Shown: piece by piece, positions 10,847 to 43,521 of the stretch
How the letters are laid out: the number at the start of each line of letters is the position of its first letter
Position numbering within the stretch: position 1 is the stretch's first letter
NCBI GenBank assembly: GCA_902385635.1
Contig: CABMGN010000004.1
Span: forward strand, 21 to 64,020
Source of the DNA: an uncultured archaeon
GTDB lineage: Archaea; Nanobdellota; Nanobdellia; Pacearchaeales; GW2011-AR1
Reading direction: 5' to 3'
Length of the DNA: 64,000 bases
Notes under the pieces: model-generated
Database searches by the model: none
Seen by the model: only the letters and a program-made list of their open reading frames with translations
Told to the model about the DNA's origin: nothing
Translations under genes and position numbers: made by a program

Positions 10847-10907
10847 CTCTTGTTTTTACTCACAAAAGCAGAATAAAGCTTTTATACTAACTTCTTTTTC
10901 GGTTTGC

Positions 10908-27566: not shown

Positions 27567-27628
27567 GATAATTAAAGAGTAAAGTTAATCACAACAATTT
27601 TAATAAAGAGTATCAGTGATTTGTCTAA

Positions 27629-28237
27629 ATGGGGAAGAAAGTGTTTTTGTTTTTATTTGTAACCCTGGCTCTCTCTTGTTTAGTTAGTGCTTTACAAATT
27701 AGTGTGAATCCAACAGATATGGTCCTGAAAGTACAAACAGAAAAAGAAGTTTGTATAAACATTACTGTCAGCTCAGACCAGGCAACAATTATTTTAGTTA
27801 GTGATAAATGGGGAAGAAGTAAGTCAGACCAAATTAATAGTTACGGAATGACTCGGGATCAACTAGCAATTAAAGCTTTTGTTCCAGATAAAGTAATTAT
27901 TGGAGCTAAAGAGGAAAAAGATGTTGAAGTTTGTTTCACTCCCGGAGGAGAGGGAACATTTTATGGGGTAATTGTATTTGAGTCTTTCAACAAGCAAGCA
28001 GTTACTGGATCCTTTATTGAACTGAAGTCAAGCTATCAAACTTCTATGGGAGATGCAACACTTTTAGGAATGACCCATCAAGATATAAAACCTGTTGACC
28101 CAAAACAGACTCTTATTGCAATCTCGTTTTTGAATACTCTTTTCTTAATCTGTGTTTTAATATACCTCCTAAGAGCTATTTCTAGAAAAAAGAAGAAAAA
28201 GAAGAGTAAAAGAACCAGAGTTATTGAAGTGAAGTAA
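27629..28237 (+). CDS. secreted beta-rich protein with C-terminal TM anchor and poly-Lys tail
   Basis: Signal peptide 'FLFLFVTLALSCLVSA' and a C-terminal TM followed by 'RKKKKKKSKR'. Confidence 0.55.
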   Translation: MGKKVFLFLFVTLALSCLVSALQISVNPTDMVLKVQTEKEVCINITVSSDQATIILVSDKWGRSKSDQINSYGMTRDQLAIKAFVPDKVIIGAKEEKDVEVCFTPGGEGTFYGVIVFESFNKQAVTGSFIELKSSYQTSMGDATLLGMTHQDIKPVDPKQTLIAISFLNTLFLICVLIYLLRAISRKKKKKKSKRTRVIEVK

Positions 28238-28405
28238 CAACAAAGATAGTGCTTTTACGACGGAAATCCTTTTAAAGAAATTTGTTATAGTCTAATCATT
28301 GGGTTTAAAGAGGTCCACTTCGGTGAGGTTCCTCTGGATCCTTGCTGAGTGGATTTAAAATGGTGAAAAAAAAGAGTCTTAATTTATTTCTAAAATTAAA
28401 TCATA

Positions 28406-28436
28406 GTTATACGTATAACAATACGGATTGTATAAC
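28406..28436. promoter_or_regulatory. 14-bp perfect palindrome plus extra half-site upstream of the PKD surface-protein gene
   Basis: GTTATACGTATAAC (28406-28419), then GTATAAC again at 28430-28436. Overlaps the shared CGGATTGTATAA motif (28424-28435), 70 nt upstream of the ATG. Confidence 0.4.
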
Positions 28437-28493
28437 GTCTCTTGTTTTACAAGAGGTTCCTATAGAAGTGAAAGGAGGTTTAAATAAAAAATA

Positions 28494-30998
28494 ATGAAAA
28501 ACAAAATACTAAGTTTTTTAGTATTGAGCGTTTTAGCTTTAGGAATGTTAGGAATGGTTAGTGCTGCGCGAAATGTTGATTCTGCTTTGCTTAACGGTGC
28601 AAGTAGTGTAACTGTTTTGCCTGGTGCAACAATCCCTGCTTCTTTAACTGTAACAACCAGCGGGGGAGGGGGGGCCCATGATTGGCACTCAACTGCTTAC
28701 CGAATAGGTACTGGAAGCTGGACTTGTGTAAATACAGACGACCATAATTCGGCCGGAACTTTTACAGAGTCTTTTTCAGTTGCAGCTCCGCTTAGTTCTG
28801 GAAGTTACAATTTTGAAGTAATTGCTTATCAAGATGGTTCTTGTTCTACGGGGGCAAGTTCTACATATACCCTTACAAATGGCATTGTAGTTACATCTAG
28901 CTCTTCTACATGTACTCTTACAATGAATAACTTAGCAGGATATTACAAAGATCCTCTTAGTTTAGCTTGGACAATCGGAAGCGATTGTACTTCTTCTCTT
29001 TATGATGTATTTTATAGAGAAGGAAGTTGTGCTTTAACTCCGGTATTGGACTGGCACCCAATTGCAACTAATGTTAACAATGATGAGTACGGCTGGACAA
29101 GTGGATTCTCTGAAGGAGAATATTGTATTAAAGTGGAAGAAGCTGGTGCTGGAACAGGCGTTGATGCGATGGATGCTACTTTCTACATAGATAATATTGC
29201 TCCAACTGCGGAAGCAAATGGACCATATACTTGTGATGAGGATACAAGCGTTACTTTATCTTCTTCTGGTTCGAACGACAATTATGGAATTTCGAGCTAT
29301 GAGTGGAGAGTAGATGATGTGGTTGTTGGTACTGGTTCAACATACGACTATTCTTGCTTAGATGGGCCTGCTTCACATAGTGTTGCTCTAACTGTTGTTG
29401 ATTATGCTGGAAATTCAAATACAGACACTTCAACAATTACAGAGAAAAATGTTGATCCTTGGAGTGTAGATGCAGGTACAGACCAAACTGTTAACGAGGG
29501 GGCTTTAGTCTCTTTCTCTGGTTCTGCAACAGATGTTTCAGGAGATAGTTTAACTTACACTTGGAACTTCGGAGACGAGTCAGAAACAGAAACTGGTTCA
29601 ACTGTATCGCATACTTACGCACAAGAAGGAATATACAACGTAACACTAACAGTCACTGATGGTGATGGGGGAATTTCAACAGATACTTTAACAGTAACTG
29701 TAAATGACCTTGACCCAACTGCAGGATTCTCAGACAATGCTCCAAAAGAAGAAGGTCAAACTGTTAGTTTTACTGATAGTTCAACTTCTTATGATGGAAT
29801 AGTTTCATGGTTTTGGGATTTCGGCGATGGTGCAAATTCAACATTAGAAAACCCAACACATGCTTATGCTGTTGACGGACCTTATACAGTTTCTCTAACT
29901 GTTTATGAAGCAGATGGAGATTCAAATACTGCAACAGATAGTGTTTCTATAACAGATAGCACACCGGTTGTAGCATTTTCGTGGTTACCTGAAAGTCCAG
30001 AAGAAGGGCAGTCTGTTCAATTCACAGATGGTTCAAGTGCATATGATTCTCCAATGACCTACTCATGGTCTTTTGGTGATAGTGCAACTTCAACTGAACA
30101 GAATCCAACACATACCTACGGAGATAATGGAGTTTATACTGTTACTCTAACTGTCACTGACAGCGATGGAAGTATTGCGTCTAGTTCTGATTCAATTTCT
30201 GTTTCAAATGTTAACCCTGTAGCTAATGCTGGCGCAGATCAAAGTGGAATTATTGGTGAATCAGTATGTTTCACAGGAAGTATGACTGATCAAGGAACAC
30301 TTGACACACACACTTTCTCCTGGAATTTTGGAGACGGAAATACTGACACAGGTGCTTCAGTTTGTCATTCTTACTCTACAAAAGGAGTTTATACTGCTAC
30401 TTTAACTGTAACAGATGACGACGGTGGAGTTGGAACAGACACAGCAACTGCAACAATTTACGACTACCAAATTGATTTATCTGAAGGATGGAATCTAATT
30501 TCATTCCCACTAGTTCCTGCAGATACAAACCTTCAAAATGTACTTGATCCAATCAAGGAAAATTTGGAAAAAGTTTGGGTCTACAGATATGATGAAACAA
30601 CCGGCAAAAATGTTTGGTTATACCAACTTTACGACGGTGAAGAATGGGTTGGAAACACTGAATTTGAGGATATAGCTCCAGGTTTAGGATACTACCTTGA
30701 AATGTCTGACTCAGATTCTCTTCTGATGAATGGAGAGAAGATGTATGACCTTGGGGGAGGACTAACAAGTCCACCAACACAAGAGGTTGTTCCTGGCTGG
30801 AATCTTATTGGACATTACGGCATGAATTCTGGAATGAGTAAAGCAAATGCTTTTGTAACTCTCTCAGGGAATTACGCCACAATGTTAGATAAGGACGGAA
30901 ATACTGAACTTAACTTGTTCTCCAAAGAAGGATACTGGTTGTTCGTAACTGGAACTAACACATTACAATACGCTCCATCAGGATACGCTTACGCTTAA
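28494..30998 (+). CDS. large secreted surface protein with 4-5 PKD domains
   Basis: Signal peptide. Four clear 'W.FGDG....H.Y...G.Y.VTLTVTD.DG' PKD repeats plus one degenerate. C-terminal domain with two 'GWNLI' motifs. Confidence 0.85.
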   Translation: MKNKILSFLVLSVLALGMLGMVSAARNVDSALLNGASSVTVLPGATIPASLTVTTSGGGGAHDWHSTAYRIGTGSWTCVNTDDHNSAGTFTESFSVAAPLSSGSYNFEVIAYQDGSCSTGASSTYTLTNGIVVTSSSSTCTLTMNNLAGYYKDPLSLAWTIGSDCTSSLYDVFYREGSCALTPVLDWHPIATNVNNDEYGWTSGFSEGEYCIKVEEAGAGTGVDAMDATFYIDNIAPTAEANGPYTCDEDTSVTLSSSGSNDNYGISSYEWRVDDVVVGTGSTYDYSCLDGPASHSVALTVVDYAGNSNTDTSTITEKNVDPWSVDAGTDQTVNEGALVSFSGSATDVSGDSLTYTWNFGDESETETGSTVSHTYAQEGIYNVTLTVTDGDGGISTDTLTVTVNDLDPTAGFSDNAPKEEGQTVSFTDSSTSYDGIVSWFWDFGDGANSTLENPTHAYAVDGPYTVSLTVYEADGDSNTATDSVSITDSTPVVAFSWLPESPEEGQSVQFTDGSSAYDSPMTYSWSFGDSATSTEQNPTHTYGDNGVYTVTLTVTDSDGSIASSSDSISVSNVNPVANAGADQSGIIGESVCFTGSMTDQGTLDTHTFSWNFGDGNTDTGASVCHSYSTKGVYTATLTVTDDDGGVGTDTATATIYDYQIDLSEGWNLISFPLVPADTNLQNVLDPIKENLEKVWVYRYDETTGKNVWLYQLYDGEEWVGNTEFEDIAPGLGYYLEMSDSDSLLMNGEKMYDLGGGLTSPPTQEVVPGWNLIGHYGMNSGMSKANAFVTLSGNYATMLDKDGNTELNLFSKEGYWLFVTGTNTLQYAPSGYAYA

Positions 30999-31006
30999 GT
31001 AAACAA

Positions 31007-31045
31007 TTTTTTTTATTTTTTTCTTTCTTTTTTCTTTTATTTTAT
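31007..31045 (+). terminator. oligo-T tract (archaeal-type terminator)
   Basis: Runs of T8, T7, T6 immediately after the stop at 30998. Confidence 0.4.
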
Positions 31046-31048
31046 CGA

Positions 31049-31060
31049 CGTATTGTATAA
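31049..31060 (+). promoter_or_regulatory. shared promoter-proximal motif CGTATTGTATAA
   Basis: 11/12 identical to 28424-28435 and at the same distance (71 vs 70 nt) from the downstream ATG. Confidence 0.4.
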
Positions 31061-31119
31061 TCTATAATACACAATCTTAATAGCAAAATGCTTTTAAACC
31101 AAAACTAGCTAAGGATTTA

Positions 31120-31926
31120 ATGAAAAAGGGTTTGGGTGTTTTGATTGCTTCAATGTTATTAATTAGTGTAACTTTAGTTCTAGCCTTACCTTACCCTCAT
31201 GCATTTAATGGTCACGTGAATATTTCTGATGGAAAAAGTCCGGTTGGACAAATGCTAAAGGGAGAAATTAACGGAGTAACAACTGGCTCGTGTATAGTCG
31301 AAAGCGGCGGAGCTTACGAGTTAACTGTAACAAAAGAAGCCCCATATTCTGGGACAATTAAGTTTTATATCGGAAATGATACTGCAAAAGAAACAGCTTC
31401 TTTTACTGTGTTTGAAATTACTACCTTAAATCTAAGCTTTGATACAATCTCTAACTATAGCGGCGTTTGTGGAAACGGAATCTGTGATTCTGGAGAGTGT
31501 GGAACATGTACAATTGATTGTAAAGTTGCTAATTGTTTAGGAAATAGCGTTTGTGATACCCAAATGGGCGAGACTTGTTCTACAGCTTCACAAGACTGTG
31601 GTGCCTGCCCTGTTACTGTCGTAACTACTACCTCTGGTGGTGGCGGAGGCGGGGGAGGAGGAGGTGGTGGCGGTGGAGCTACTACAACTAGAACAAATAC
31701 TACAACAACTAATTCAACAACAAGCACAACCACTGGAGAAGGGAATGCTCCTTTGTCTCTTGATCAAATAAATCAGGAGAGAGAGAATCCTGGAAGTACT
31801 AGTCCGGGAATTACTGGTGCAGTAATTGGTTTTGTTGGAACTCCACTAGGAATGGTGGTAGTAATTTTCATTTTACTAATAATTATTCTAGCAATCATAG
31901 TCATTGTTAAAAAAAGAAGGAAGTAA
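31120..31926 (+). CDS. surface protein: beta domain, Cys-rich module, poly-Gly/Thr stalk, TM anchor
   Basis: Signal peptide; 'CGNGICDSGECGTCTIDC...CGACP'; G14 run; T-rich linker; C-terminal TM followed by 'KKRRK'. Confidence 0.7.
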   Translation: MKKGLGVLIASMLLISVTLVLALPYPHAFNGHVNISDGKSPVGQMLKGEINGVTTGSCIVESGGAYELTVTKEAPYSGTIKFYIGNDTAKETASFTVFEITTLNLSFDTISNYSGVCGNGICDSGECGTCTIDCKVANCLGNSVCDTQMGETCSTASQDCGACPVTVVTTTSGGGGGGGGGGGGGGATTTRTNTTTTNSTTSTTTGEGNAPLSLDQINQERENPGSTSPGITGAVIGFVGTPLGMVVVIFILLIIILAIIVIVKKRRK

Positions 31927-31927
31927 A

Positions 31928-32656
31928 ATGATGTTAAGAGGTTTAATTGTAGGAATTGTACTAATTATTGGAATTTCTCTAGTTTTTTCTGCTGTTCCTT
32001 TTCCTCACGGATTTTACGGAACAGTAACTTATTCTAATGGGTCTCTTGTTAATTCTGGAAGCATTGTTACAGAGATGAATAATCTTCCGACAGGGCAAGG
32101 AAGCATAATTAACGGGCAATACAGCTTGGTTGTACAAAGCACAACTAATTTTGGTACAATATATTTTTATTATAATAATGGAACAAATAATTTTCTTACA
32201 ACTATTCCATTTGGGCCTACTGGAAATGTTACCCAGTTGAATTTTAATGTATCTAGCCCAATAGTAACTCCGACCAACATTACAAATATTACCTCAAATA
32301 CAACAGTTACTGGAGATTCTAACGATGATAATGATTGTGAAGATAGCGATCACAAATCTTCTTTTGTAAATATCTGCGAACCAAACTGGGAGTGCGGGGG
32401 TTGGAGTGTATTCACATCCGGAGTTCAAACAAGAAACTGTATTGATACAAATAATTGTGATTACAAGTATAACCAACCAATTGAAGTTGTCGATTGTAAA
32501 AGTTTAGAGAAACAAAAAGTTCTTGTAGAAGAAAAACACAAGATAAATTGGAAAAAACCTTTCCTAGCGTTCAATCTTTTGCTAACATTTATACTCTTAT
32601 TCCTTGTCTTGCTAATAGTTCGTAGAAGAAATCAAGAGAGTGACGACTATTTCTAA
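31928..32656 (+). CDS. surface protein, paralogue of the N-terminal domain of 31120-31926, with TM anchor
   Basis: 'PFPHGFYGTVTYSNG' aligns with 'PYPHAFNGHVNISDG'. Cys-rich segment, C-terminal TM. Start moved to the ATG at 31928, 1 nt after the upstream stop. Confidence 0.65.
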   Translation: MMLRGLIVGIVLIIGISLVFSAVPFPHGFYGTVTYSNGSLVNSGSIVTEMNNLPTGQGSIINGQYSLVVQSTTNFGTIYFYYNNGTNNFLTTIPFGPTGNVTQLNFNVSSPIVTPTNITNITSNTTVTGDSNDDNDCEDSDHKSSFVNICEPNWECGGWSVFTSGVQTRNCIDTNNCDYKYNQPIEVVDCKSLEKQKVLVEEKHKINWKKPFLAFNLLLTFILLFLVLLIVRRRNQESDDYF

Positions 32657-32693
32657 AAAAAATAAAATAATAGAAAAAAAAGACTAACTAAAT

Positions 32694-32825
32694 TTAGTAG
32701 TCGCTATCGGAATCTGATTCCAGATCTTCTGAATCGTCTGAACCCCAGTCGTCAGAGTCGTCTGAACCCCAGTCGTCAGATTCTTCTTCAAAATCTTCTT
32801 CTTTTTTTTGGTTTTTTGTAGCCAT
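32694..32825 (-). CDS. 43-aa hyper-acidic micro-protein with tandem SDDWGSDD repeat
   Basis: Hand translation: MATKNQKKEEDFEEESDDWGSDDSDDWGSDDSEDLESDSDSDY*. Absent from the ORF track because it is under 60 aa. Contains a 23-nt direct repeat with 24-nt (in-frame) period at 32734-32756 and 32758-32780. Confidence 0.35.
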   Translation of the reverse strand: MATKNQKKEEDFEEESDDWGSDDSDDWGSDDSEDLESDSDSDY

Positions 32826-32898
32826 TTTGGTTGTCAAAACCTTATTTAAGTTAAATGTACAACTTTGTCGGTTTTTTAAATCTTTTGAGTCTTGAAAA

Positions 32899-33480
32899 CT
32901 AAGAAAAATATGGGGCTAGATTATAAGCTAGTCCAGTAATTGCTAGTGAAGCAGTTACTGCCAATGCAGCAAGACCTTTCTTCTCCCGAGGGGAAAACTG
33001 CTGAATAACCTGCGGCAAACGTTCGGAAGGTTCAACATTAAAAAAGTCTCTAAACGCGTCTACAGAGTACCCCAGCAACCAACCTGTGGCGCCCATGGCA
33101 GCTACGTTATAAAAAGTATTCCACCCAACATCCTGCTCTCCTCTTGCTCCAGCAATCAAATAAAATGGAACCGTAGTAACAACTCCGTAGGCAAGAGAGT
33201 AAGCAATATCGTGAAACTTCTTAGCTTTTTCTGTAGATTCAGGAGTAATCCCAAACATATTTCGCGAATGCCCCCTTAACCAGGTAAAAAGAGACCCAAA
33301 ACCAGCGTATGTTAATCCAATAGCGAGAAGACGAGAGTTAATTGATGTTTGAGTTGCTAGGGGATGTTGATTAAATTTTTCAACTGCAGCCATAACTGGA
33401 GTTGCAACAGTCATTACTGCTGTTGAATCCACTAAATGTTTCTTCAAATTTATTTCTTTAACGATTGAAACTAATTTCAT
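32899..33480 (-). CDS. AlaE-like (L-alanine exporter family) membrane protein
   Basis: 'DSTAVMTVATPV', 'SRLLAIGLTYAG', 'HDIAYSLAYGVVTTVPFYLIAGA', 'GYSVDAFRDFF' parallel the E. coli AlaE blocks from memory. Visibly higher G+C than its neighbours. Confidence 0.5.
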   Translation of the reverse strand: MKLVSIVKEINLKKHLVDSTAVMTVATPVMAAVEKFNQHPLATQTSINSRLLAIGLTYAGFGSLFTWLRGHSRNMFGITPESTEKAKKFHDIAYSLAYGVVTTVPFYLIAGARGEQDVGWNTFYNVAAMGATGWLLGYSVDAFRDFFNVEPSERLPQVIQQFSPREKKGLAALAVTASLAITGLAYNLAPYFS

Positions 33481-33524
33481 TGTTATTATTCAGAATTAGG
33501 CTTCTGAGGCCGACCACCTCTTGA

Positions 33525-33538
33525 GAGCGCCCCGTCCG
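33525..33538. repeat. att core, distal copy (displaced tRNA-Glu 3' end)
   Basis: 14/14 identical to 42206-42219, and 18/20 when extended to 33519. Confidence 0.65.
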
Positions 33539-33573
33539 CGCCGTTCGGAGTTGTGTAGAGTTTAGATGGGCCT

Positions 33574-33747
33574 TTAAGACAAATTGACCCCGGTTAGAGC
33601 AAGGATTATATCCAATACTGCAAATAGTCCTAAAATAATAAGGGTAGTGCGCCCTAACCACTTCGTGTTAAGATTAAAAAGTTTAGTAAGCCCAAGCATT
33701 AACCCTAGACCCAAAAGAACAATTAATTCCAGTTCAAATATTGGCAT
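33574..33747 (-). CDS. 57-aa two-TM micro-protein
   Basis: Hand translation: MPIFELELIVLLGLGLMLGLTKLFNLNTKWLGRTTLIILGLFAVLDIILALTGVNLS*. Not in the ORF track. Confidence 0.3.
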   Translation of the reverse strand: MPIFELELIVLLGLGLMLGLTKLFNLNTKWLGRTTLIILGLFAVLDIILALTGVNLS

Positions 33748-33788
33748 TTACAAGAAAAGTTTATTTAATATATAAACTTTAACTTTCT

Positions 33789-35246
33789 ATGAACTTAAAA
33801 AGCAACTTCTTATGTAAATGTGGGGGATTATTATATACGGATTTTAAAACAAATAGCGAGTATTGTTTGAACAAGAACTGTGAGAATCATAAAGATATAG
33901 AAAGAATTTATAACAAAAAAGGAGATGTGGAAGAACGATTCAAGAGAATAAAAGAGTCCTTAAGACTTAAATCAAAATTGTTTAGTTCAAACTTTATTAA
34001 TTTCTTATTTGATCAACAAAATTATTTCTTTTCTAAGATTTATGGGGGAGAGGGTGCTCCAATTAATGGGCTGTTAATTATCTGCTATATAATCTTCCTA
34101 GTTAAAGACATTAAATTTGTTGGAAGAGACTCACGACCAAAAAGTTTTATGAACTTTTTAAGATCTCAACATGAACCCTTAAATAATTATTTGTTCTATC
34201 AAGATATAAAAGAAGAGAATATCATCTTAGTAGATTTACCTGGAAGAACGAATGTCCCTTTGAAGTTAAAATATTTAACAGAAATAAATAAACAGAAGAA
34301 TAATTATGGAATGATTAGCGATATTCATTCTGAGACTAACTTTCGATATGACAATATTGACTTAGAAAAAATCGATAAAAAGGTGTTTAAAATAGGTATG
34401 GAATTAGACGAGTATTTCATACAATTCTTCCCAGAAATGATGAAAATTGATATGCTTACAAAGTCAAACCAAGAATTTAGCAAGCTATTTGAAAGAAGGG
34501 GTTTTACTAAATATGAAGTTGGAGCACTATTATCTCTTTTCTTTTCAAGCCCCGTACTTATAGATTTATCTAAAATTAAAAAGAAAGAATTCATAAAAAC
34601 TCTTAAGCAGATGGAGTTTAATGATATTCAAATAGAAAATTTATTTAAATTTTTAATAGGTGATAGTGATCAAATACCTCTAGCAATTGTAACCGATGAA
34701 GAAATTATCTATGGGAAATGGACTAGTTTAGCTATGGTAATGAAGTATTTGGGAACTCTTCCTGAAAGACCATTAATAGTAGAGGGGAAAAGGGTTGCGA
34801 GTAAGGTATTTGAAGGAAAGATAAGAGATATATTAAGAACAAGAGGTTATCTTGTTCCATTTAATCAAGAGATACAACTTCACAAAGATGAAGATGGATA
34901 TGATGTAATCGCAATAGATAAGACAAAAAAGAAAATAAATATAATCGAAGCAAAGTATCGTGATCTGCCTAGTTCAGCATTTTCAGCTTTAAACTTACTT
35001 AATCTGAAAATTTATGGTAAAGAGTTTGGAGAGATCGAAATTGCTAAAAAACAAATTAGTAGAAAAGAACAATTAGAACAGAATAAAGATATTTTAGAAG
35101 CAAAATTATCTAAAGAAGGAATAAAAATAGATCTAAAAGAATATGATATTGTCCCTTATGTAGTTTTCAAATTTAGCCCAATCTTATCTCAATTTGAAAT
35201 AGTTAAATTAATCTCGTTTGATGACGTCTCAAATATTAATTTTTAA
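33789..35246 (+). CDS. Zn-ribbon / unknown middle region / C-terminal PD-(D/E)xK (Mrr_cat- or NERD/Shedu-like) nuclease
   Basis: N-terminal 'CKCGG...C..KNC'. C-terminal 'FEGKIRDILRTRGYLV...EDGYDVIAID....INIIEAKY' fits the D...(D/E)xK nuclease core. Confidence 0.6.
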   Translation: MNLKSNFLCKCGGLLYTDFKTNSEYCLNKNCENHKDIERIYNKKGDVEERFKRIKESLRLKSKLFSSNFINFLFDQQNYFFSKIYGGEGAPINGLLIICYIIFLVKDIKFVGRDSRPKSFMNFLRSQHEPLNNYLFYQDIKEENIILVDLPGRTNVPLKLKYLTEINKQKNNYGMISDIHSETNFRYDNIDLEKIDKKVFKIGMELDEYFIQFFPEMMKIDMLTKSNQEFSKLFERRGFTKYEVGALLSLFFSSPVLIDLSKIKKKEFIKTLKQMEFNDIQIENLFKFLIGDSDQIPLAIVTDEEIIYGKWTSLAMVMKYLGTLPERPLIVEGKRVASKVFEGKIRDILRTRGYLVPFNQEIQLHKDEDGYDVIAIDKTKKKINIIEAKYRDLPSSAFSALNLLNLKIYGKEFGEIEIAKKQISRKEQLEQNKDILEAKLSKEGIKIDLKEYDIVPYVVFKFSPILSQFEIVKLISFDDVSNINF

Positions 35247-35490
35247 TTTCCTTAACCAACTCTTCACCTTTCTTAGTTCTTCTATAAAGCCTATACCTTT
35301 TCTCTTCTGGGTTTAAGCATTCAATTAACTTCCGATCAATTAAAGAAATAATTATATTGCTTATGTAACCTAGGTTAAGATTTAGTTCAGCTGATAGCTG
35401 AGTTGGTGTCTTTGGTTCAGACAAAGCAAGAAAAACCCCTTTTCTATGTTTGCTACGAATTACGAAGCTGTAATCTCCCCAGTTTTTCAT
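35236..35490 (-). CDS. small winged-helix (ArsR/MarR-like) regulator
   Basis: 'RKGVFLALSEPKTPTQLSAELNLNLGYISNIIISLIDRKLIE...YRLYRRTKKGEE' shows an HTH plus wing. Confidence 0.7.
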   Translation of the reverse strand: MKNWGDYSFVIRSKHRKGVFLALSEPKTPTQLSAELNLNLGYISNIIISLIDRKLIECLNPEEKRYRLYRRTKKGEELVKEIKN

Positions 35491-35549
35491 GTATAGAAAT
35501 GTTTATAAAATATTTAATACTTAGACGAGTATTACACGAGCTATTAAAA

Positions 35550-35987
35550 ATGACAAAGGAAGGGCATAAACATGAGAAGAAAAGTGCTTGGTTTTATGTA
35601 GCGATTATCGTTGGAATGTTACTAGTTTTTGCTTTAATTCTGGCTTTTATAAATCCAAGTTCTAGTACTGAAACAAAGTCTAAGGAAACCTACATCTATA
35701 ATTATACTCAGACTAACTCTGATACTGGGAGTCAAACACAAACTGTAAGCTCAAGCAAGGTTCTTATAAACGGGGCGTATGATGTTAAAACAGTCAGTCA
35801 ACCAGGACAGAGCATATACCTAATAGTTAATGGGGTTAGCGAGCAAATAACAGTATCCAAAGACACCCTGGTTTCTCAACTTGACTTAAATGGTATGCAT
35901 AATATAGTTAACTTATGTCAGGGAGTTCATTCTCCACAGGTTAATCAAAACGGAGTAGATAATAATGTAAATTATCTAATCTGCTAA
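35550..35987 (+). CDS. membrane-anchored S/T-rich protein
   Basis: TM helix 'WFYVAIIVGMLLVFALILAF', then an extracytoplasmic domain. Start moved to the ATG at 35550, because the longer ORF overlaps the divergent regulator. Confidence 0.5.
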   Translation: MTKEGHKHEKKSAWFYVAIIVGMLLVFALILAFINPSSSTETKSKETYIYNYTQTNSDTGSQTQTVSSSKVLINGAYDVKTVSQPGQSIYLIVNGVSEQITVSKDTLVSQLDLNGMHNIVNLCQGVHSPQVNQNGVDNNVNYLIC

Positions 35988-36058
35988 AGTTCTTTATAAA
36001 AATTGACCCGCTCTTTTGAGAAAATAATCTTTTAAATAGACACCTTGATTTTATATAC

Positions 36059-37468
36059 CTAACACCCTCTTCGAAAGTTATGTTTGTCCTTGTGTCTAAC
36101 ATAAACATTTATTATTAAAAAAATTCCTGACAAGATTAGAGAGATTATAATAATTAAATAGAATAAATTGAATCTTAAGGGGATTGGTAATGTAATCAAG
36201 ATCCCAAATATAGATATTAAGCTTATTTCTAGATACTTCATAAATTGTTCTCTTCCATACCTTAAAATTAGACAAAAATATATTAGAGAAAGTAAAATAA
36301 AAGAGATGAAAATTAATTGATAAACAAAGGGCCTATCAAATAATAGTCTTATTTCTTTAAGATCTTCAACTTCATCCAAAGAGCCGTAATAAACTATCCC
36401 CTCGGGATCCCCATTTGGGCTAGTACTTGAGCGAACTGTTCTTAATGGATAAGTAATGATATTAAGAGTGAATCCTTTATTATTCACTCCATTTTTTATA
36501 ATTAAGTCATGAGTATTATTAGTTGAGAGAAAAATCTTACTAGTAAGGTCTTCCGACTTTTTCTGGTTAAAACTAAAACCTCTTGGCTCAGTTATAAAAA
36601 AAGATATCTTAGCATATCTAACTAATTCGCTTTTTTCTGAGGAGTATAACAAAGAAACTGATTCTGGGAAGAAGATCTTGTTAGATTTTACTTCATCAAA
36701 TGGAAATCGAAAAGGGCGAATATCTATTGTTTTTTCTAATGCATAATCTATTTTTATATGGTGCTTAGTGTTATTTTGTAACTTTATAAAAAGGGTGGTT
36801 CCATTTGAATAATCTAAGGTGGTTGTACATGATTCTTTATTATCCGTACAATCAAAGACGTGAAGGAAATTAAGGTCCGTTCCTTCTAAGGGGTAAGACA
36901 GAGACATTTGGGTTACCTCTGGAGATAAAATGATATCAATTTCATCGGTTATTTTCAAAGGAAAATCAAAGTTTAATGTCCTTTTCCAGTCTAATACATG
37001 ATAATTTAAAGAAGTGGCAGTCCAATTCAGAGAAAATATTGGAGAAGGTTCGATATAACTCCCAGGGATATCAAGGAAAAAAGAGTAGTTCATACTCTCT
37101 TCCTCATTCTTAACACTCCAAGAGATATTGTTTATATCCGCTTGTGAACTTAGATTAAATTGAATACTCTTTCGTTGGGATCGATTATTCTGATTTATAA
37201 TCCAGAGGGTTACATCCTCCAAAGATTCATTTTTACAAGAATTTGCCAAGTTTGCTGATAGATCTACATAATCCCCCCTAATGTAGTTATAAACAGATTC
37301 TTGATTAACTCCCAGTGAAGGGCAAGCATTAAACGATCCATAGATAGAACAGTTGTAAGGAAGAGTGATGTTGATGTTTGTGATAGCTAGTGCTTCAATT
37401 ACAGAAATAGCAAAAGAAAGGGTTAATAACGGTATAATTATGAATAATAAAGGTTTATATTTTCCCAT
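36059..37468 (-). CDS. glycoprotein-like envelope/surface protein (signal peptide, many N-x-S/T sequons, 3 C-terminal TMs)
   Basis: 469 aa. 'LLFIIIPLLTLSFAISVIEA' signal. More than 12 sequons (NIT, NCS, NRS, NLS, NIS, NYS, NWT, NGT, NNT...). Hydrophobic C-terminus. Confidence 0.6.
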   Translation of the reverse strand: MGKYKPLLFIIIPLLTLSFAISVIEALAITNINITLPYNCSIYGSFNACPSLGVNQESVYNYIRGDYVDLSANLANSCKNESLEDVTLWIINQNNRSQRKSIQFNLSSQADINNISWSVKNEEESMNYSFFLDIPGSYIEPSPIFSLNWTATSLNYHVLDWKRTLNFDFPLKITDEIDIILSPEVTQMSLSYPLEGTDLNFLHVFDCTDNKESCTTTLDYSNGTTLFIKLQNNTKHHIKIDYALEKTIDIRPFRFPFDEVKSNKIFFPESVSLLYSSEKSELVRYAKISFFITEPRGFSFNQKKSEDLTSKIFLSTNNTHDLIIKNGVNNKGFTLNIITYPLRTVRSSTSPNGDPEGIVYYGSLDEVEDLKEIRLLFDRPFVYQLIFISFILLSLIYFCLILRYGREQFMKYLEISLISIFGILITLPIPLRFNLFYLIIIISLILSGIFLIINVYVRHKDKHNFRRGC

Positions 37469-37589
37469 ATTTTTTTGAGGGATTACTAATTAATAAGTAT
37501 TACTCTTTCTAGAAACATCTTCCCCTAATCGCATATTAATATATTTGTGTATTTACGTAATCATGTACTCTCGTATTCACAGATTGCCT

Positions 37590-37850
37590 TAATGACGTAG
37601 TGAAGTAATGAAGTAATGCAGTGTTTAAGACTTGAAGCTTTTAAGTATTGAAGATTTAAAGCTTTTGAGTAAATTCTTTGTAATTGAGTAATCTTGAAGA
37701 AAATGAGCAAAATAAGCAGTTTAAGAGAATTAAGTACTTTTAACAGATTAAACAGTTTTACTGAATTTACTGAATCTAGTAAAGAGGGTAAAGATAGTAA
37801 AAGTAGTAAAATAAGTAGATCAAGTGCATTAAGAGGTTCAAGATTTTCAG
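37590..37850. repeat. C-depleted tract of degenerate short tandem/dispersed repeats
   Basis: GAAGTAAT x2, TTGAAG x3, AGCTTTT x2, TTACTGAAT x2 in tandem, AGTAAA x3. About 17 C in 240 nt by hand count on the plus strand. Confidence 0.5.
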
Positions 37851-37851
37851 C

Positions 37852-38253
37852 TTATTTAGCTTTACTTACTTTTCTCACTTTCTTTAGATAAATGTCTAAG
37901 AATGGCAAACGCCTGTCAACCGGTGTTTGTTTTCCTGCCTTAACTTCTTCCCAGGAATCCTTTCGGACTCTAAATTTACCATTTTTCAGCCTTTCTAGAT
38001 AACTTCGCTTAACTAGGTCTTCACAAGCCCTTTTGTAGTTTGAATAGCTGGCACTTACGTAAGCCCTGGCTATTTCCATGTAAGTTGAAGGTCTATTACT
38101 GTTCTTTATAAAAAAAGCAAGCACAGATATCTCAGTTTTAGACCAGAGTGTATGCTCTTTGATTACAATTTTGCGATCGTCTCTCTTAAACGGGACTTTC
38201 AGAAGTTTCTCAAATTCCTTTTGACTAATCTCTTCTTGGTCTTCCATTTGCAA
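37852..38253 (-). CDS. wHTH-like DNA-binding protein
   Basis: 'STYMEIARAYVSASYSNYKRACEDLVKRSYLERLKNGKFRV' looks like an HTH plus wing. 133 aa. Confidence 0.45.
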   Translation of the reverse strand: MQMEDQEEISQKEFEKLLKVPFKRDDRKIVIKEHTLWSKTEISVLAFFIKNSNRPSTYMEIARAYVSASYSNYKRACEDLVKRSYLERLKNGKFRVRKDSWEEVKAGKQTPVDRRLPFLDIYLKKVRKVSKAK

Positions 38254-38398
38254 TTATCTCAATTTATTTGCACGCCCGCTTAAATAGTTTTTCACTTTTT
38301 CTCTGTTATGAAAACAATTGAAGAAAAACTTGAAGCGTTACAGGTAATGCTTGAACGCCTTGAATTAAAAGTACATAGGAAAATAATGGAGAGAGAAC

Positions 38399-38575
38399 AT
38401 GAAAAAGAACTCCCACTTACACATTCTAATTGAAACAAATCTACTAACAAAACTAAAAGAAGAAGCTCAAAAGAGGAATCTTTCACTAGGGCAATTTTGC
38501 AGGTTAAAACTAAAAAAACAAGACCAATTAGACAGAATTGAAACAAAAGTAGATAAGATTTTGAAAAAGACCTAA
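38399..38575 (+). CDS. ribbon-helix-helix (CopG/Arc-like) protein, 58 aa
   Basis: Hand translation: MKKNSHLHILIETNLLTKLKEEAQKRNLSLGQFCRLKLKKQDQLDRIETKVDKILKKT*. Beta-strand then two helices is the RHH pattern. Not in the ORF track. Confidence 0.5.
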   Translation: MKKNSHLHILIETNLLTKLKEEAQKRNLSLGQFCRLKLKKQDQLDRIETKVDKILKKT

Positions 38576-38576
38576 C

Positions 38577-39149
38577 TTATATTTTAGATACTATTTCATT
38601 CCAAGAGTAAATTAGCATAATTGTTTTATAAAATCCATATAAGAAAAGAATAAACCCGGGTTGGGATAAAAAATAAACAGTAAGATCTTGCAAAATTAAT
38701 GGGTTCGGGGTAAAGATCAAATCCCCGAGTAGAAGGAATATACTTATTAGAAAAGAAGCTATGATTCTAAATAATATCTTTTTAAGATTTATCTGTTCAT
38801 GAAAGATAGTCAAATTATCGGATTCTTCTCTAATCTTGCCGATTTCATCAGAAACTGAATTATAATCATTCTCGCTATAGTTATTTATTTTTTTTAAAGA
38901 TTCTGAAACATTTGCTACAAATTTTGTCCTGTAAGAAACTATTAACTTTTCCTTACTTTCTTTTATCCTTTTTTGAATAACCAGAGGGTAAAAGATTGCT
39001 ACAAATGCTAATAAGGATACATCCAGAGACAAGATTGCATAATAGTTATTTCTGATACTTGAAGTATACGCCAAAGAGATAACACCAAATAGTAAAAAAA
39101 GAATAGGCATCCAATCTTTTAATTTAAGAAAAAATTCTTTTCTTTCCAT
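38577..39149 (-). CDS. membrane protein (4 TM with central soluble loop)
   Basis: 190-aa clean ORF, 1 nt downstream of the preceding gene in the integrase operon. Confidence 0.5.
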   Translation of the reverse strand: MERKEFFLKLKDWMPILFLLFGVISLAYTSSIRNNYYAILSLDVSLLAFVAIFYPLVIQKRIKESKEKLIVSYRTKFVANVSESLKKINNYSENDYNSVSDEIGKIREESDNLTIFHEQINLKKILFRIIASFLISIFLLLGDLIFTPNPLILQDLTVYFLSQPGFILFLYGFYKTIMLIYSWNEIVSKI

Positions 39150-39150
39150 T

Positions 39151-39528
39151 TTAGTTTTTACCTGACTTTTTATCTTTTTTTTTAGAAGATATTAGCCAGA
39201 TAAACCAGCATATTAAAGATAAAACAGAAAGGATTAATATAACCCAAGCAAAAGTTACAACCCCGATAAGACCGCTTTTTTCTAAAACTATAAGAATAAT
39301 ACTTATTGCTAAAAAAATCCAAGAAATCCAACTACCAAAGTTTTGTGCAACGCCATTTTTTAGTTCCACACCATTAATTATAATTGCTATAGAAAACAAA
39401 GGTAAAACCCAAGGTTCTATCGTTTCAGAAGCAAGATCTAGAAAAGTACGAATAATTGTCTCTGCTAGAATAAATCCTCCAATAATTATTAATAATTCCC
39501 CTATCGTTTTTTTGTCGATACCTTCCAT
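39151..39528 (-). CDS. membrane protein (4 TM, basic tail)
   Basis: 125-aa hydrophobic ORF ending 'KKKDKKSGKN'. Confidence 0.5.
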   Translation of the reverse strand: MEGIDKKTIGELLIIIGGFILAETIIRTFLDLASETIEPWVLPLFSIAIIINGVELKNGVAQNFGSWISWIFLAISIILIVLEKSGLIGVVTFAWVILILSVLSLICWFIWLISSKKKDKKSGKN

Positions 39529-39582
39529 AAAAGGTCGAATAATGAAATGCTTTTAAAGTTTTCTAGGCTAGTTAATAGAATT

Positions 39583-39729
39583 CTAACTTTTACAATATTT
39601 AAAAAATTCTTTCAAAAAATAAAACATTCCTTCTCCAAATTCAGTCAAGTCTTTATTCCTTTTTAGCTTTTTGCAGTCTTCATAATCTTCTCTTAATTGT
39701 TTAGCAAGTCGTTCTGGAATTTTCATCAT
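39583..39729 (-). CDS. 48-aa ORF translationally coupled to the integrase
   Basis: ATGATGA overlap with the integrase stop. Hand translation: MMKIPERLAKQLREDYEDCKKLKRNKDLTEFGEGMFYFLKEFFKYCKS*. Confidence 0.3.
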   Translation of the reverse strand: MMKIPERLAKQLREDYEDCKKLKRNKDLTEFGEGMFYFLKEFFKYCKS

Positions 39730-40883
39730 AACTTCTCAATAACTTGATCTAAACGAATGAGAGTCTCCATAAACCTATCAACTTTCTCTTCTATAGCTTT
39801 CATTCTATCATCAAGAATCTGTTTATCTCTACTACTCTGTTGGAGATTCTTCTCAAGCTCCGTCTTTTCTTCAGCAAGAACAAGATCATCTTGAGTAATT
39901 GTGTCTTTCATTCCTAATAATTCTGAATAATAATGAATTTTATCTGATTTTTTCCAACCAAATCTATACTTCAATGCCGACTCTGATTTGTAACGGGGAA
40001 GCCAATAACAGCAAGAACAATGCCTAAAATCGTACATTGTGAGCTCGGAGTACTTTTCTCCAGCCAAACTTACTTTATCCCCTAAAACTCTTTCTGCTAG
40101 TCTTTGCAGGTATTTGTTAACTGTGGCTGGCTTTATTGAAAACAAATAGTCCTCTTGGCTAAGTTCCTTTTCTAGGACATATTCCTTAATATGTTGAAAG
40201 CAAAGCATTAGCTTTATCTTTCTCCCAAAAGTTTTACTTATTTCTTCCCGGATCATTAGCTCCTTAAAATCTCCATAGAAATCTGAAACCTTAACATTCA
40301 CTAGTTCCGTTGGAGACCTAATTCCCGTATCAAATAAAAACATGATTAAAACCTTATAGTCCCATCTCGCCTTATTACATAACTTTTTTATTTGCTCTTC
40401 TGTCAAGTAAACCCAGTGGGGCTTTTCTCCTCTCGAGTCTAAATCAGTAGCAATGTCGGGGATTTCCTTTCCTTGTTTCTTGTTTACTATCTGCCACCAA
40501 TGCCAAAATGCTTTGATAATTTTTACAAAATAATTAACTGATTGGTACATTTTGCCATCATTTCTTGCAATTTCTCCCTTCCTCATTTTTGAAAAGAAGA
40601 GAACAAGCTGATTTTCAGTTATTTCAGTTATGTCATCAAGATTATAAATTTCTTTGAACTTTTTTGCAAAAAAATACATTTTTTCTCTAAGTGTGTTAAG
40701 CCGAATAAAGCTTCTACATCCCTTAACACTTTTTTGAGAGACATTTAAGCCATGTTCCATATCAGTTACATACCTGAGAATTAAGTCAGAATTTTTCTTT
40801 GAGATATTTGGAACTCCTTCAATTAGAACTTTTTCTTTCCATTTTTTATATTTCTCTTCATGGTTATAGGGGTCTATCTTCAT
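39726..40883 (-). CDS. int: tyrosine recombinase / integrase
   Basis: Box I 'DTGIRSPTEL', box II 'DFRHCSCCYW', and the C-terminal Tyr region 'KIHYYSELL'. Confidence 0.85.
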   Translation of the reverse strand: MKIDPYNHEEKYKKWKEKVLIEGVPNISKKNSDLILRYVTDMEHGLNVSQKSVKGCRSFIRLNTLREKMYFFAKKFKEIYNLDDITEITENQLVLFFSKMRKGEIARNDGKMYQSVNYFVKIIKAFWHWWQIVNKKQGKEIPDIATDLDSRGEKPHWVYLTEEQIKKLCNKARWDYKVLIMFLFDTGIRSPTELVNVKVSDFYGDFKELMIREEISKTFGRKIKLMLCFQHIKEYVLEKELSQEDYLFSIKPATVNKYLQRLAERVLGDKVSLAGEKYSELTMYDFRHCSCCYWLPRYKSESALKYRFGWKKSDKIHYYSELLGMKDTITQDDLVLAEEKTELEKNLQQSSRDKQILDDRMKAIEEKVDRFMETLIRLDQVIEKL

Positions 40884-40988
40884 GAAAGATAAAATTAAAT
40901 CTTATTTAAAAGAAACCACAACAACTGTTGAACATGTTGCTAAGTTGAGTATAAAAATGTTTAAATTCGAAGAAAATCTTTATCATAT

Positions 40989-41756
40989 ATGGATATCAGT
41001 CAAGCAATAGTTAGTTTTAAGCAAGAAGTTCGAAATTTCTCTGAAGATATACTTGGAGTTGGAAAATATGCGACTCCAATTTATAGATCTGCAGAAAAGA
41101 TTATCCACTTCATAGATAATCCCTCTCAAAAATTAGAAGAAATATTCACAAAATTGAAAGAAGAGTGTCTTAATTATGATACTGCTCAAGACTTTTTTGG
41201 AGGTAAAGAAGAAAAAGGATTATATCACTATGCGGAGTTACTTCTTATAGAAGTAGATAAAATTAGATTCAACAAAGATCAGACATTTTCAAAAAAAGAA
41301 AACAAGTATCATTTAAGAGAAGATAAAAAAATATTTATAATTCATGGAAGAAGAACTGATCTAGCAGATGAATTGCACAGAATCTTGAATGAACATAAGT
41401 TAAATTCCGTTATTTTACAATATATACCAAATACTGGAAGAACAATCATAGAAAAACTTGAAGAAGATGGTTTTAATTCTTCAGACTATGCTATAGCAAT
41501 TATGACCCCTGATGATTCTGGAGGATTAATTAACTCAAAAAAAGATTCGCCAAGAGCTAGACAGAACGTTATTCTAGAGATTGGGGCATTTGTAATGAAA
41601 GATCGTAAGAGATTATGTATACTAAAAAATGGTGAAGTAGAGTTGCCTTCGGATTTATCTGGAGTTTTATATCTAGAATTTGACAAAAAAATAGAAGAAA
41701 TTTCAAGGGCTATTCTTAGGGAATTGTCCAAGTCGGGTTTTAACATTTCTTTTTAG
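40989..41756 (+). CDS. TIR-like (Cap12/PycTIR-type, COG4271-like) domain protein with novel ~105-aa N-terminal domain
   Basis: 'KIFIIHGRR...AIAIMTPDD.....ARQNVILEIGAF....R.CIL....ELPSDLSG' matches the prokaryotic TIR-like effector signature, including the conserved Glu. Confidence 0.7.
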   Translation: MDISQAIVSFKQEVRNFSEDILGVGKYATPIYRSAEKIIHFIDNPSQKLEEIFTKLKEECLNYDTAQDFFGGKEEKGLYHYAELLLIEVDKIRFNKDQTFSKKENKYHLREDKKIFIIHGRRTDLADELHRILNEHKLNSVILQYIPNTGRTIIEKLEEDGFNSSDYAIAIMTPDDSGGLINSKKDSPRARQNVILEIGAFVMKDRKRLCILKNGEVELPSDLSGVLYLEFDKKIEEISRAILRELSKSGFNISF

Positions 41757-42136
41757 AATAAGATATTTACTATTGCAGAAATCGCCAAAATAGCAGTTAA
41801 AATAACCAACCAAAGTTGTAATAAGTCAACTCTCTTTTTTTCTCTAACCTCTCTCGATTGTTTCTCCAGTTCTAATGCTATATTGAATCCTTTTTCAGTT
41901 AAATCAACCCAGTCACTATACTCTTTATAACTCTGTATATTCAGTCTGGTAAGTTTATTATCTTCTAAAAAGGAAATGGACTCTCCCAATTCATGACCCT
42001 TAATCCTAAGTCTCTTTGCAAGATCATGTTGGTCATCCCAGTAACTCATCTTTCCCGAAGAGCAATACTTACCTGGGGCATGTCTATAAATTTCCAGTAA
42101 CACCTTCTTCCAAGTATTAGGTTTTCTAATCTCCAT
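41753..42136 (-). CDS. wHTH-like protein with C-terminal TM helix
   Basis: 127 aa. 'LAKRLRIKGHELGESISFLEDNKL' HTH-like segment. C-terminal 'LWLVILTAILAISAIVNILF'. Confidence 0.45.
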   Translation of the reverse strand: MEIRKPNTWKKVLLEIYRHAPGKYCSSGKMSYWDDQHDLAKRLRIKGHELGESISFLEDNKLTRLNIQSYKEYSDWVDLTEKGFNIALELEKQSREVREKKRVDLLQLWLVILTAILAISAIVNILF

Positions 42137-42205
42137 AATTTTCTTAGAAAAAACCTATTTTTAACGATTTATATAAAAAGCCCACACAAACTAGACAAGT
42201 CTTTC

Positions 42206-42219
42206 GAGCGCCCCGTCCG
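42206..42219. repeat. att core, tRNA-proximal copy
   Basis: Identical to 33525-33538. Covers the discriminator plus the 3' acceptor strand of tRNA-Glu and 3 nt beyond. Confidence 0.65.
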
Positions 42220-42281
42220 GGATTCGAACCCGGGTTACTGCCTTGAAAGGGAAGTGTACTTGGCCTCTGTACTAACGGGGC
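42209..42281 (-). tRNA. tRNA-Glu(UUC)
   Basis: Acceptor GCCCCGT/ACGGGGC, anticodon arm CTTCC-CTTTCAA-GGCAG (one U-C mismatch), T-arm CCGGG-TTCGAAT-CCCGG. 73 nt. Confidence 0.85.
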
Positions 42282-43398: not shown

Positions 43399-43521
43399 TG
43401 AGCCTACACGGATTTGAACCGTGGACCCCCGCCTCTCTTAGACTTTTTCTATGAGATCAGCAATCCTGATGGAATGCAGTCCTATAAGAGCGGTGCTCTA
43501 ACCAGGCTGAGCTATAGGCTC
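43399..43521 (-). tRNA. tRNA-Ile(UAU) with a 48-nt canonical (37/38) intron at 43435-43482
   Basis: Exons fold to a 75-nt cloverleaf (acceptor GAGCCTA/TAGGCTC, T-arm CACGG-TTCAAAT-CCGTG). The junction forms a textbook bulge-helix-bulge: CCGCU/GGCGG stem, 3-nt bulge AGA, 4-bp CUUA/UAAG, 3-nt bulge UAG, GAC/GUC. Confidence 0.75.

Follow-up and report, generated by a model that had tools for sequence, protein, structure and literature searches.

Two identical stretches of 14 nucleotides (nt) lie 8.7 kb apart on contig CABMGN010000004.1 of an uncultured archaeon, one of them overlapping the 3′ end of a tRNA-Glu gene, and the question they raise is whether the DNA between them arrived by site-specific recombination and, if it did, what kind of element it is. 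The 64-kb stretch of this contig that was analysed is called the window, and all coordinates refer to it unless they carry an L-number, which denotes a contig or locus of another assembly. The evidence set out below argues that positions 33525–42219 (8,681 bp, one core copy counted) are very probably a site-specifically integrated mobile element, one member of a large family of 8–10-kb integrative elements in DPANN archaea. A plasmid-like or cryptic integrative element is favoured over a provirus because no virion genes were recognised and because the genes held in common by the family form a DNA-binding backbone.

Attachment sites, integrase and relatives of the element

The features that carry the argument are, by coordinates and strand:

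33525–33538, minus: right attachment (attR) core, a displaced duplicate of the tRNA-Glu 3′ end (reading CGGACGGGGCGCTC in the sense of the tRNA); the 14 nt match exactly and occur as a single pair in the window
33548–33575, plus: right-end inverted-repeat arm (GAGTTGTGTAGAGTTTAGATGGGCCTTT), 9 nt inside attR; recognised by its match to the arms of other elements
39726–40883, minus: intact tyrosine recombinase/integrase of 385 amino acids (aa) with a pNOB8-type catalytic signature; profile matches, invariant residues and fold model
42175–42201, minus: arm of the inverted repeat at the left end (reading GACTTGTCTAGTTTGTGTGGGCTTTTT in tRNA sense), 4 nt inward of the left attachment (attL) core and followed by TATA-like TTTATATA; recognised by its match to the arms of other elements
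42206–42219, minus: attL core, overlapping the 3′ end of tRNA-Glu; exact 14-nt repeat
42209–42281, minus: tRNA-Glu(UUC), intact, the integration target; called by ARAGORN as ttc at 42208–42281 and by Rfam at 42209–42281 with 58.7 bits

The two cores (GAGCGCCCCGTCCG) share one orientation, and no third site was found in the window even with up to two mismatches allowed. None of 100 dinucleotide shuffles gave two matches, and the expected count is 0.01, which speaks for the direct repeat claimed in the preliminary description of this DNA and against the possibility, raised there, that the 14-mer is merely a common genomic word. Read in the sense of the tRNA, the core (CGG-ACGGGGC-G-CTC) begins with the last three nucleotides of the T-stem, runs through the 3′ acceptor strand (7 nt) and the discriminator, and ends three nucleotides beyond the latter. 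At the distal copy no tRNA was called by ARAGORN or Rfam, as had been anticipated for a displaced half-site. The longer match of 18 in 20 positions reported earlier (33519–33538 versus 42200–42219) is real, but by our estimate the four extra matches in six are close to chance in AT-rich DNA (p ~0.07) and add nothing beyond the core. On the element side of the distal core (33539–33549), and at the equivalent positions of L037, L038 and L040, the sequence reads T(T/C)CnGA and resembles a tRNA T-loop (TTCGAA), as if the attachment site of the free element (attP) might mimic more of the tRNA than the exact core.

Composition changes at the same two points. Guanine-plus-cytosine (GC) content is 31.0% between the cores and 35.0% outside them, a value below all 152 equal-sized windows drawn from outside the element (z = −4.8), and the edges of the drop coincide with the two repeats. 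The tetranucleotide deviation is moderate (z up to 2.5), with the 27–33-kb region equally deviant, and GC is the stronger compositional signal; the compositional break that had been proposed as a check is therefore present, clearly in the one measure and only moderately in the other.

The integrase gene lies 1.3 kb downstream of attL and the tRNA-Glu, on the same strand as the tRNA. Its product matches the phrog_1 integrase profile at 8e-18 and, among sequences in the PDB, Pyrococcus XerA at 9e-4, with box I R189 and box II Y284-x-x-R287-H288 aligned. An alignment of 25 homologues shows no variation at R189, K217/K224, Y284, R287, H288, W310 or Y318/Y319, so that the catalytic R-K-H/Y-R-H/W-Y set is complete. 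A profile built from the homologue alignment found nothing in the PDB at 1e-3 and was probably too narrow. The AlphaFold (AF2) model built on that alignment has a mean predicted local distance difference test (pLDDT) score of 80.1 and the two-domain fold of tyrosine recombinases (core-binding plus catalytic), and its best 50 Foldseek matches in the PDB are all tyrosine recombinases, at probability 1.0 over 300–359 columns, XerA, Tn1549 Int, XerH, Cre, IntI and lambda Int among them. The protein is a divergent member of the tyrosine recombinase superfamily, and the intact recombinase of the preliminary description is borne out by profile, residues and fold alike. In the model a single helix of about 55 residues follows the catalytic tyrosine (residues 331–384, 39726–39890); it is absent from the matched PDB recombinases, is less conserved in the family and may be an oligomerisation element.

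Archaeal integrases of the pNOB8 type have been distinguished by an R...YxxR...Y signature from those of the SSV type, which have KxxR (PMC8371274). Here the signature is Y284-D-F-R287, the YxxR form. A suicidal integrase of the SSV type is ruled out because the gene is intact and the core lies outside the integrase open reading frame (ORF), in addition to the signature being YxxR and not KxxR; by the definition in the same source (PMC8371274), the signature and the unsplit gene are best read as those of a pNOB8-type, non-suicidal enzyme.

The strongest evidence comes from relatives. Homologues of the integrase number 2,403 at E ≤ 1e-3, and the best 120 homologue clusters are 62–79% identical to it, are about 385 aa long and, where named, are attributed to Pacearchaeota or Nanoarchaeota; integrases at this level of identity are widespread in Woese- and Pacearchaeota-type assemblies. 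Nine integrase contexts were fetched and repeats of a tRNA 3′ end were sought downstream. Among nine loci whose flanks are long enough, seven hold an intact element or remnant that follows a tRNA (Glu or Asp) and has a repeat of 12–15 nt, always in one register, at its ends. The elements and remnants found were:

Window element: tRNA-Glu; core 14 nt; copies 8.7 kb apart
L038: tRNA-Glu; core 15 nt (TCGGTCGGGGCGTTC); copies 8.1 kb apart
L040: tRNA-Asp; core 15 nt; copies 9.2 kb apart
L049: tRNA-Glu; core 12 nt; copies 8.2 kb apart
L044: tRNA-Glu, the contig ending inside the tRNA; core 13 nt; copies 9.4 kb apart, two further copies beyond
L037: contig starting in the core; core 13 nt; copies 10.0 kb apart
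L046: intron-containing tRNA-Asp missed by ARAGORN; core 13 nt; copies 10.0 kb apart
Remnant L018: tRNA-Glu; core 13 nt; truncated integrase
Remnant L004: tRNA-Glu, 5787–7460; core 13 nt; 1.6 kb, one gene
Remnant L021: tRNA-Glu; core 12 nt; second copy 133 nt away

All cores of the listed elements start 2–4 nt into the 3′ strand of the T-stem and end 1–4 nt past the discriminator, and the intact elements of the family measure 8–10 kb. Since such repeats recur at other loci with differing core sequences, each core matching the tRNA of its own locus, the repeat in the window is to be taken as an att pair. With same-register repeats at six related loci added to the repeat, the intact tRNA and recombinase and the GC drop, the preliminary proposal of an element integrated at a tRNA 3′ end gains considerably in strength.

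Several of these loci deserve separate mention. The L004 insert (5787–7460) has both cores and significant inverted arms, its sole gene encodes a 409-aa AAA-type ATPase and it has no integrase, and it may be a non-autonomous derivative. In L044 four copies of the att core occur (19–31, 9432–9444, 11411–11423 and 11957–11969), and the two short core-bounded segments beyond the 9.4-kb element, which hold only MazE/PemK with an NYN protein and HicAB, look like accreted decayed integrations or cassette-like units. The element of L046 (9189–19310) has its integrase at the distal end, inverted relative to the tRNA, and its cargo includes a Hachiman pair (HamA plus helicase). Contigs L014, L035, L037 and L044 end inside or right beside the target tRNA, which suggests that metagenome assembly fails at these points because of the elements themselves or of a heterogeneous population at the site.

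The family also has imperfect inverted repeats of about 25 nt, 4–11 nt inside both cores, and in seven of nine elements the local alignment score of an element's own pair exceeds all 1,000 shuffles. In the window the right arm scores 31–33 against the left-end arms of L038 and L044 (shuffle maxima about 23–29) and the left arm 35–40 against the right-end arms of L038 and L037, the left arm being the only match to the family arm motif in the window. The arms of L044 read AACTTTGTAGAGTTTAGGTGGGCGT and AACTATTGTAGAGTTTAGATGGGCGT, and those of L046 have TCTTATAAAATGTCTCA...GTGGGACGCGA at both ends; the arms of L040 and L046 are divergent, but the same variant stands at both ends of each, so that the arms co-vary. 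They were found by explicit local alignment with shuffles, as a generic repeat finder was swamped by AT-rich chance matches and missed gapped arms. The arms would be sites at which proteins of the recombination complex bind; as each is followed by a TATA-like run, they may also act as promoters of the terminal genes.

Gene content of the element and its surroundings

Comparison of the ORFs of all elements against one another yields a conserved backbone: the integrase (nine of nine loci compared), a ribbon-helix-helix protein of about 60 aa (eight of nine, 66–80% identical), a divergently transcribed winged-helix-like protein of about 115–145 aa (six of nine, 55–59% identical where tblastn detected it) and, adjacent to it, an iteron-like tract. 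Besides the integrase, the window element contains:

33574–33747, minus: 57-aa ORF with two hydrophobic segments, a doubtful gene; hydropathy, no family match
33789–35246, plus: 485-aa cargo protein with a Cys4 zinc ribbon at the N-terminus, a winged helix in the middle and a PD-(D/E)xK-like nuclease motif at the C-terminus; weak DUF234 match, 1e-3
35236–35490, minus: predicted winged-helix DNA-binding protein of 84 aa; Pfam HTH_45 at 2.7e-6, above the cut-off
35550–35987, plus: single-pass membrane protein of 145 aa; one transmembrane (TM) segment, homologues of 136–138 aa in L042 and L049
36059–37468, minus: 469-aa membrane protein with an N-terminal signal/TM segment, an ectodomain and about three C-terminal TM segments; hydropathy
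37469–37851, no strand: non-coding AT-rich iteron-like tract with tandem repeats of 8–9 nt and 24 nt, immediately following the winged-helix gene; Tandem Repeats Finder (TRF)
37852–38253, minus: winged-helix-like backbone protein of 133 aa; weak family matches
38399–38575, plus: ribbon-helix-helix backbone protein of 58 aa, divergent from the winged-helix gene; weak CopG match
38577–39149, minus: multi-pass membrane protein of 190 aa, cargo; hydropathy, not common to other elements
39151–39528, minus: multi-pass membrane protein of 125 aa, cargo; hydropathy
39583–39729, minus: 48-aa ORF overlapping the integrase stop codon; no Pfam match
40989–41756, plus: TIR-like protein of 255 aa; PF10137 at 6.7e-32, PADLOC PDC-S35 at 4.2e-46
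41753–42136, minus: 127-aa protein with a C-terminal TM anchor and possibly a winged helix; weak MntR-like match (0.057), hydropathy

Homologues of the 133-aa winged-helix protein, 55–59% identical, occupy the same position in L037, L038, L042 and L044, and blastp clustering alone adds a more distant one in L046. No PDB sequence matched this protein, and the best PDB match of its 58-aa ribbon-helix-helix neighbour, pRN1 ORF56, is not significant (E = 0.33). In every element the winged-helix gene is immediately followed by AT-rich, non-coding DNA that contains short tandem repeats; the repeat sequence varies from element to element, and the position holds the densest cluster in six of eight elements. 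Eight of the 13 TRF rows of the whole window element fall in 37539–37938, in keeping with the repeat tract noted earlier, whose tandem repeats lie at about 37590–37880. From its arrangement the tract resembles an iteron-type origin or operator beside its putative binding protein, and the 133-aa protein is a candidate for an iteron-binding, maintenance or regulatory role. A scan for bacterial promoters and terminators was uninformative for an archaeon. A second, looser pair is formed by the small winged helix-turn-helix gene (35236–35490, HTH_45), which has a homologue at the equivalent position in L049, and the gene for a membrane protein of 136–145 aa (35550–35987), whose start was set at the ATG at 35550 and not at the mechanical TTG at 35403.

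The remaining genes are variable cargo. The earlier statements that none of the genes between the cores is a housekeeping gene and that about six encode membrane proteins agree with the inventory, in which hydropathy gives six membrane proteins. The identification of a TIR-like protein likewise holds, residues 33–254 aligning to positions 34–258 of the 264 in the PDC-S35 model. Matches to the Cap12 and PycTIR structures are weak, and the NCBIfam Cap12 score is 28 against a cut-off of 450. Pfam and PADLOC searches found no CD-NTase or pyrimidine cyclase in the element beside the TIR gene, and because no cyclase is nearby, and with the Cap12 score so far under its cut-off, a role as CBASS or Pycsar effector was rejected for this context. 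Judged by its profile matches, the protein is a candidate single-gene antiviral defence (PDC-S35, itself a candidate system).

The PD-(D/E)xK nuclease of the preliminary description stands in part: the motif is there, with D372 and E387-x-K389 invariant, but the label is only weakly supported, by the DUF234 match and a model of low confidence. Only three homologues of the 485-aa protein were found among 5.8 billion proteins. Its model (pLDDT 47 overall, 70–89 in the C-terminal part) contains a winged helix and, C-terminally, an alpha-beta-beta-beta-alpha-beta arrangement, and its weak Foldseek matches to HamA, HincII, EcoRV and MarR-type proteins are, at pLDDT 47, hints only. The 469-aa membrane protein carries 11 N-x-S/T sequons in its ectodomain and had no family match in Pfam, NCBIfam, PHROG or PADLOC; it is a near-orphan, with two relatives at 28–30% identity among 1.84 billion representatives.

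Across the relatives the cargo slots hold HamA plus helicase (Hachiman), KwaA, GmrSD_N, AAA_15 and ThsB-type TIR genes, and further type IIG restriction-modification, other methyltransferases, PemK/MazE, HicAB and an NYN protein. Going by these annotations, the variable part of the family looks like a carrier of defence genes.

The surroundings of the element show where its host stands. An Obg-like GTPase beside the element has no more than 76% identity to its counterparts in metagenome-assembled genomes (MAGs) of Woesearchaeota, Pacearchaeota and Nanoarchaeota, and for this reason the host is taken to be a DPANN archaeon without a close relative among the reference species. On the right-hand side of tRNA-Glu the order of methyltransferase, GTPase and the genes at 45.7–47.2 kb is kept in many relatives, to the left synteny is never conserved, and the tRNA-Glu marks a synteny breakpoint. 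Between methyltransferase and GTPase lies a fifth tRNA, intron-containing (123 nt; 43399–43521, minus strand), which Rfam calls with 54.5 bits and ARAGORN missed; the region is conserved in L038 at 7613–7741. On the other side, the region 27000–33500, downstream of tRNA-Leu(taa) at 27187–27272, has the highest GC in the window (0.38–0.40) and a tetranucleotide deviation (z ~2.8) as large as that of the element. It encodes paralogous secreted, TM-anchored proteins (31120–31926 and 31904–32656) with Gly/Thr-rich linkers, and a repeat of the tRNA-Leu 3′ end was looked for in it and not found.

Mobility and alternative explanations

How such an element would move can be proposed from its parts. 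The circular form would carry attP, in which the two arms would flank the 14-nt core in the order arm-N9-core-N4-arm. Within the core, the integrase would carry out strand exchange between attP and the tRNA gene's 3′ end, which would regenerate the tRNA and displace its old 3′ end to 33525–33538. The arms may bind the integrase or the small DNA-binding proteins of the element, and the winged-helix/ribbon-helix-helix pair together with the iterons might serve episomal maintenance, copy control or excision control.

Several findings weigh against an integrated, mobile element of this family. The NCBIfam XerA match of the integrase (9e-14) reaches 51.6 bits and misses the cut-off of 220, and there is no match to Pfam PF00589 at E ≤ 0.1; a PF00589 match is precomputed for many of its close homologues. 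The window's own arm pair is weak, with a score of 18 (19/1000 shuffles), and the arm motif is absent from L049. In L047 an integrase homologue (9591–11158) lies 326 nt downstream of tRNA-Ser(gct) with no repeat within 11 kb and without the ribbon-helix-helix and winged-helix backbone genes, although this locus may represent a larger or different element that uses the same integrase family. Searches of Pfam, NCBIfam and PHROG recognised no replication protein, helicase, primase, relaxase, ATPase or structural gene in the window element. An empty site with the window's left flank was not found, the collections holding no close relative, and neither a circular contig nor an attP junction was seen among the contigs.

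The searches behind the last two points covered several routes. Exact-sequence look-ups returned no record of the integrase or of the flanking methyltransferase, no relative emerged when metagenomes were scanned with the AlaE-like protein, and the exact 39-nt 3′ half of the tRNA-Glu occurred in only one contig of 2.7 kb (L045), with unrelated genes downstream. The tRNA-Glu genes of L007, L016 and L017 have neither repeat nor integrase, and their left flanks are not syntenic with the window. L007, where the housekeeping genes for tRNA-guanine transglycosylase, MscL and deoxyhypusine synthase come after tRNA-Glu, was rejected as a syntenic empty site; its 43-aa tblastx match to window positions 32503–32631 falls inside the tRNA-guanine transglycosylase gene and is spurious. 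L050 and L053 (8,682 and 8,702 bp, with homologous integrases) were rejected as circular forms: they show no terminal overlap, tRNA or arm motif and are linear fragments. We infer current mobility from what the element itself retains, namely perfect cores, an intact integrase and conserved arms.

A broader form of the same explanation can be offered tentatively, as a possibility that we would not yet expect to hold in full. The elements could be widespread, undescribed minimal integrative plasmids of DPANN archaea with a distinct att architecture, in which the 133-aa protein would be a new type of initiator or maintenance protein acting on the iterons, and which would be a main vehicle for defence systems (TIR/PDC-S35, Hachiman, Kiwa-type, GmrSD, restriction-modification and toxin-antitoxin) moving between genome-reduced archaea.

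It might alternatively be supposed that the locus is the provirus of a small membrane-enveloped virus resembling the pleolipoviruses, in which the 469-aa protein would be the spike and the small membrane proteins parts of the virion. The size of 8.7 kb, the six membrane proteins and the build of the 469-aa protein (signal/TM segment, 11 N-x-S/T sequons, C-terminal anchors) would suit such a virus, and a short att at a tRNA acceptor end is described for the pleolipovirus SNJ2 (PMC8371274). However, PHROG and Pfam give no structural, morphogenesis or packaging match, scans of 2.9 million IMG/VR contigs with the integrase and with its alignment found no member of the integrase family, and genomes of phages and archaeal viruses in GenBank yield only 24% matches, to Bacillus phage integrases. 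The supposed spike is a near-orphan, and a provirus is improbable above all because the membrane proteins are not conserved among family members, only the DNA-binding backbone being so.

Nor does the locus have much the look of a fixed island, the product of an old integration now inherited vertically and no longer mobile, with the recombinase kept for some other role. Such an island would fit the failure to find an empty site or a circular form, the identity of the integrase to that of L038 (71%, similar to the 74% of the host GTPase) and the decayed remnants at the same tRNA in the relatives L018, L004 and L021. It fits poorly with cores identical at 14 of 14 positions, with two conserved arm motifs, with a full-length integrase that has every catalytic residue and with a GC content still 4 points under that of the host; moreover, members of the family sit at different tRNAs, each with a core to match, and could only have come there by repeated integration, and we consider a fixed island decidedly unlikely.

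That the 14-nt repeat is a chance match or common word and the recombinase a chromosomal Xer-type resolvase is scarcely credible, for although XerA is both the NCBIfam match and the nearest PDB sequence, the XerA score (51.6) is far under its cut-off (220), the 14-mer has just two occurrences in 64 kb where 0.01 are expected, the neighbourhoods consist of variable cargo and not of conserved chromosome, and the same register at six other loci with different core sequences in effect refutes it.

Significance and comparison with known systems

The integrated mobile element described here matters chiefly as a point of reference. Mobile elements of DPANN archaea are barely characterised, and no member of the integrase family was found in the virus and plasmid collections searched (IMG/VR, GenBank viruses and PLSDB, the last giving no match of the integrase at E ≤ 1e-3). 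The window element is a clean, fully bounded copy from a family with thousands of integrase homologues, and its att rule, a core of 12–15 nt at a tRNA 3′ end with inverted arms, would allow islands to be delimited automatically in MAGs. Defence genes appear to gather in the cargo slots, which bears on the virus resistance of genome-reduced symbionts, and such an element, small and with its integrase and att site defined, could plausibly serve as the starting point for genetic tools where a lineage has none so far. The preliminary description had put forward the element and its cargo as candidates for something undescribed. The family is apparently undescribed in the literature searched, although a study of DPANN mobile elements or the TIGER/Islander catalogues may already cover such islands, and DPANN archaea do not figure at all in a 2021 review of archaeal tyrosine recombinases (PMC8371274); the kind of element is ordinary and its mechanism textbook, so that the value lies in cataloguing and enabling work and not in a new concept.

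Among known systems, the SSV-type integrases are alike as archaeal tyrosine recombinases that target tRNA genes, tRNA-Glu included. In those systems, however, the integrase gene contains att and is split on integration, and the enzyme carries the KxxR signature, whereas here the gene stays intact with att outside it, and the enzyme has YxxR. The pNOB8-type plasmids of Sulfolobales, and the pT26-2-type of Methanococcales, share the YxxR signature, an intact integrase gene, a tRNA 3′ target and direct repeats (PMC8371274). The pNOB8 family is grouped by at least 30% identity over 60% (PMC8371274), and the DPANN elements, likened to it by signature and layout, are much smaller (8–10 kb) and have no recognisable replication or conjugation genes. 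SNJ2 shares a very short att at a tRNA acceptor end and a small element with an intact integrase and small accessory genes (PMC8371274), but its host is haloarchaeal and the window element has no pleolipovirus core genes.

In bacteria, pipolins (PMC11551731) and TIGER/Islander islands (PMC12424338) are comparable as tRNA-linked platforms flanked by direct repeats that carry exchangeable defence systems. The present elements differ from these in their archaeal host and the lack of a PolB or relaxase, and they are much smaller and built on another backbone. Alike in general character are cryptic integrated elements of other archaea, for example Thaumarchaeota, which Krupovic et al. are said to have described in 2019 (cited in PMC8371274). 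Such cryptic archaeal elements are small and integrated at tRNA genes, and they encode an integrase and a few DNA-binding proteins with no identifiable replication or virion module. The family to which the window element very probably belongs is set apart from them by a distinct integrase family, a backbone of ribbon-helix-helix protein, winged-helix protein and iterons, arms beside a core of 12–15 nt, and its DPANN hosts.

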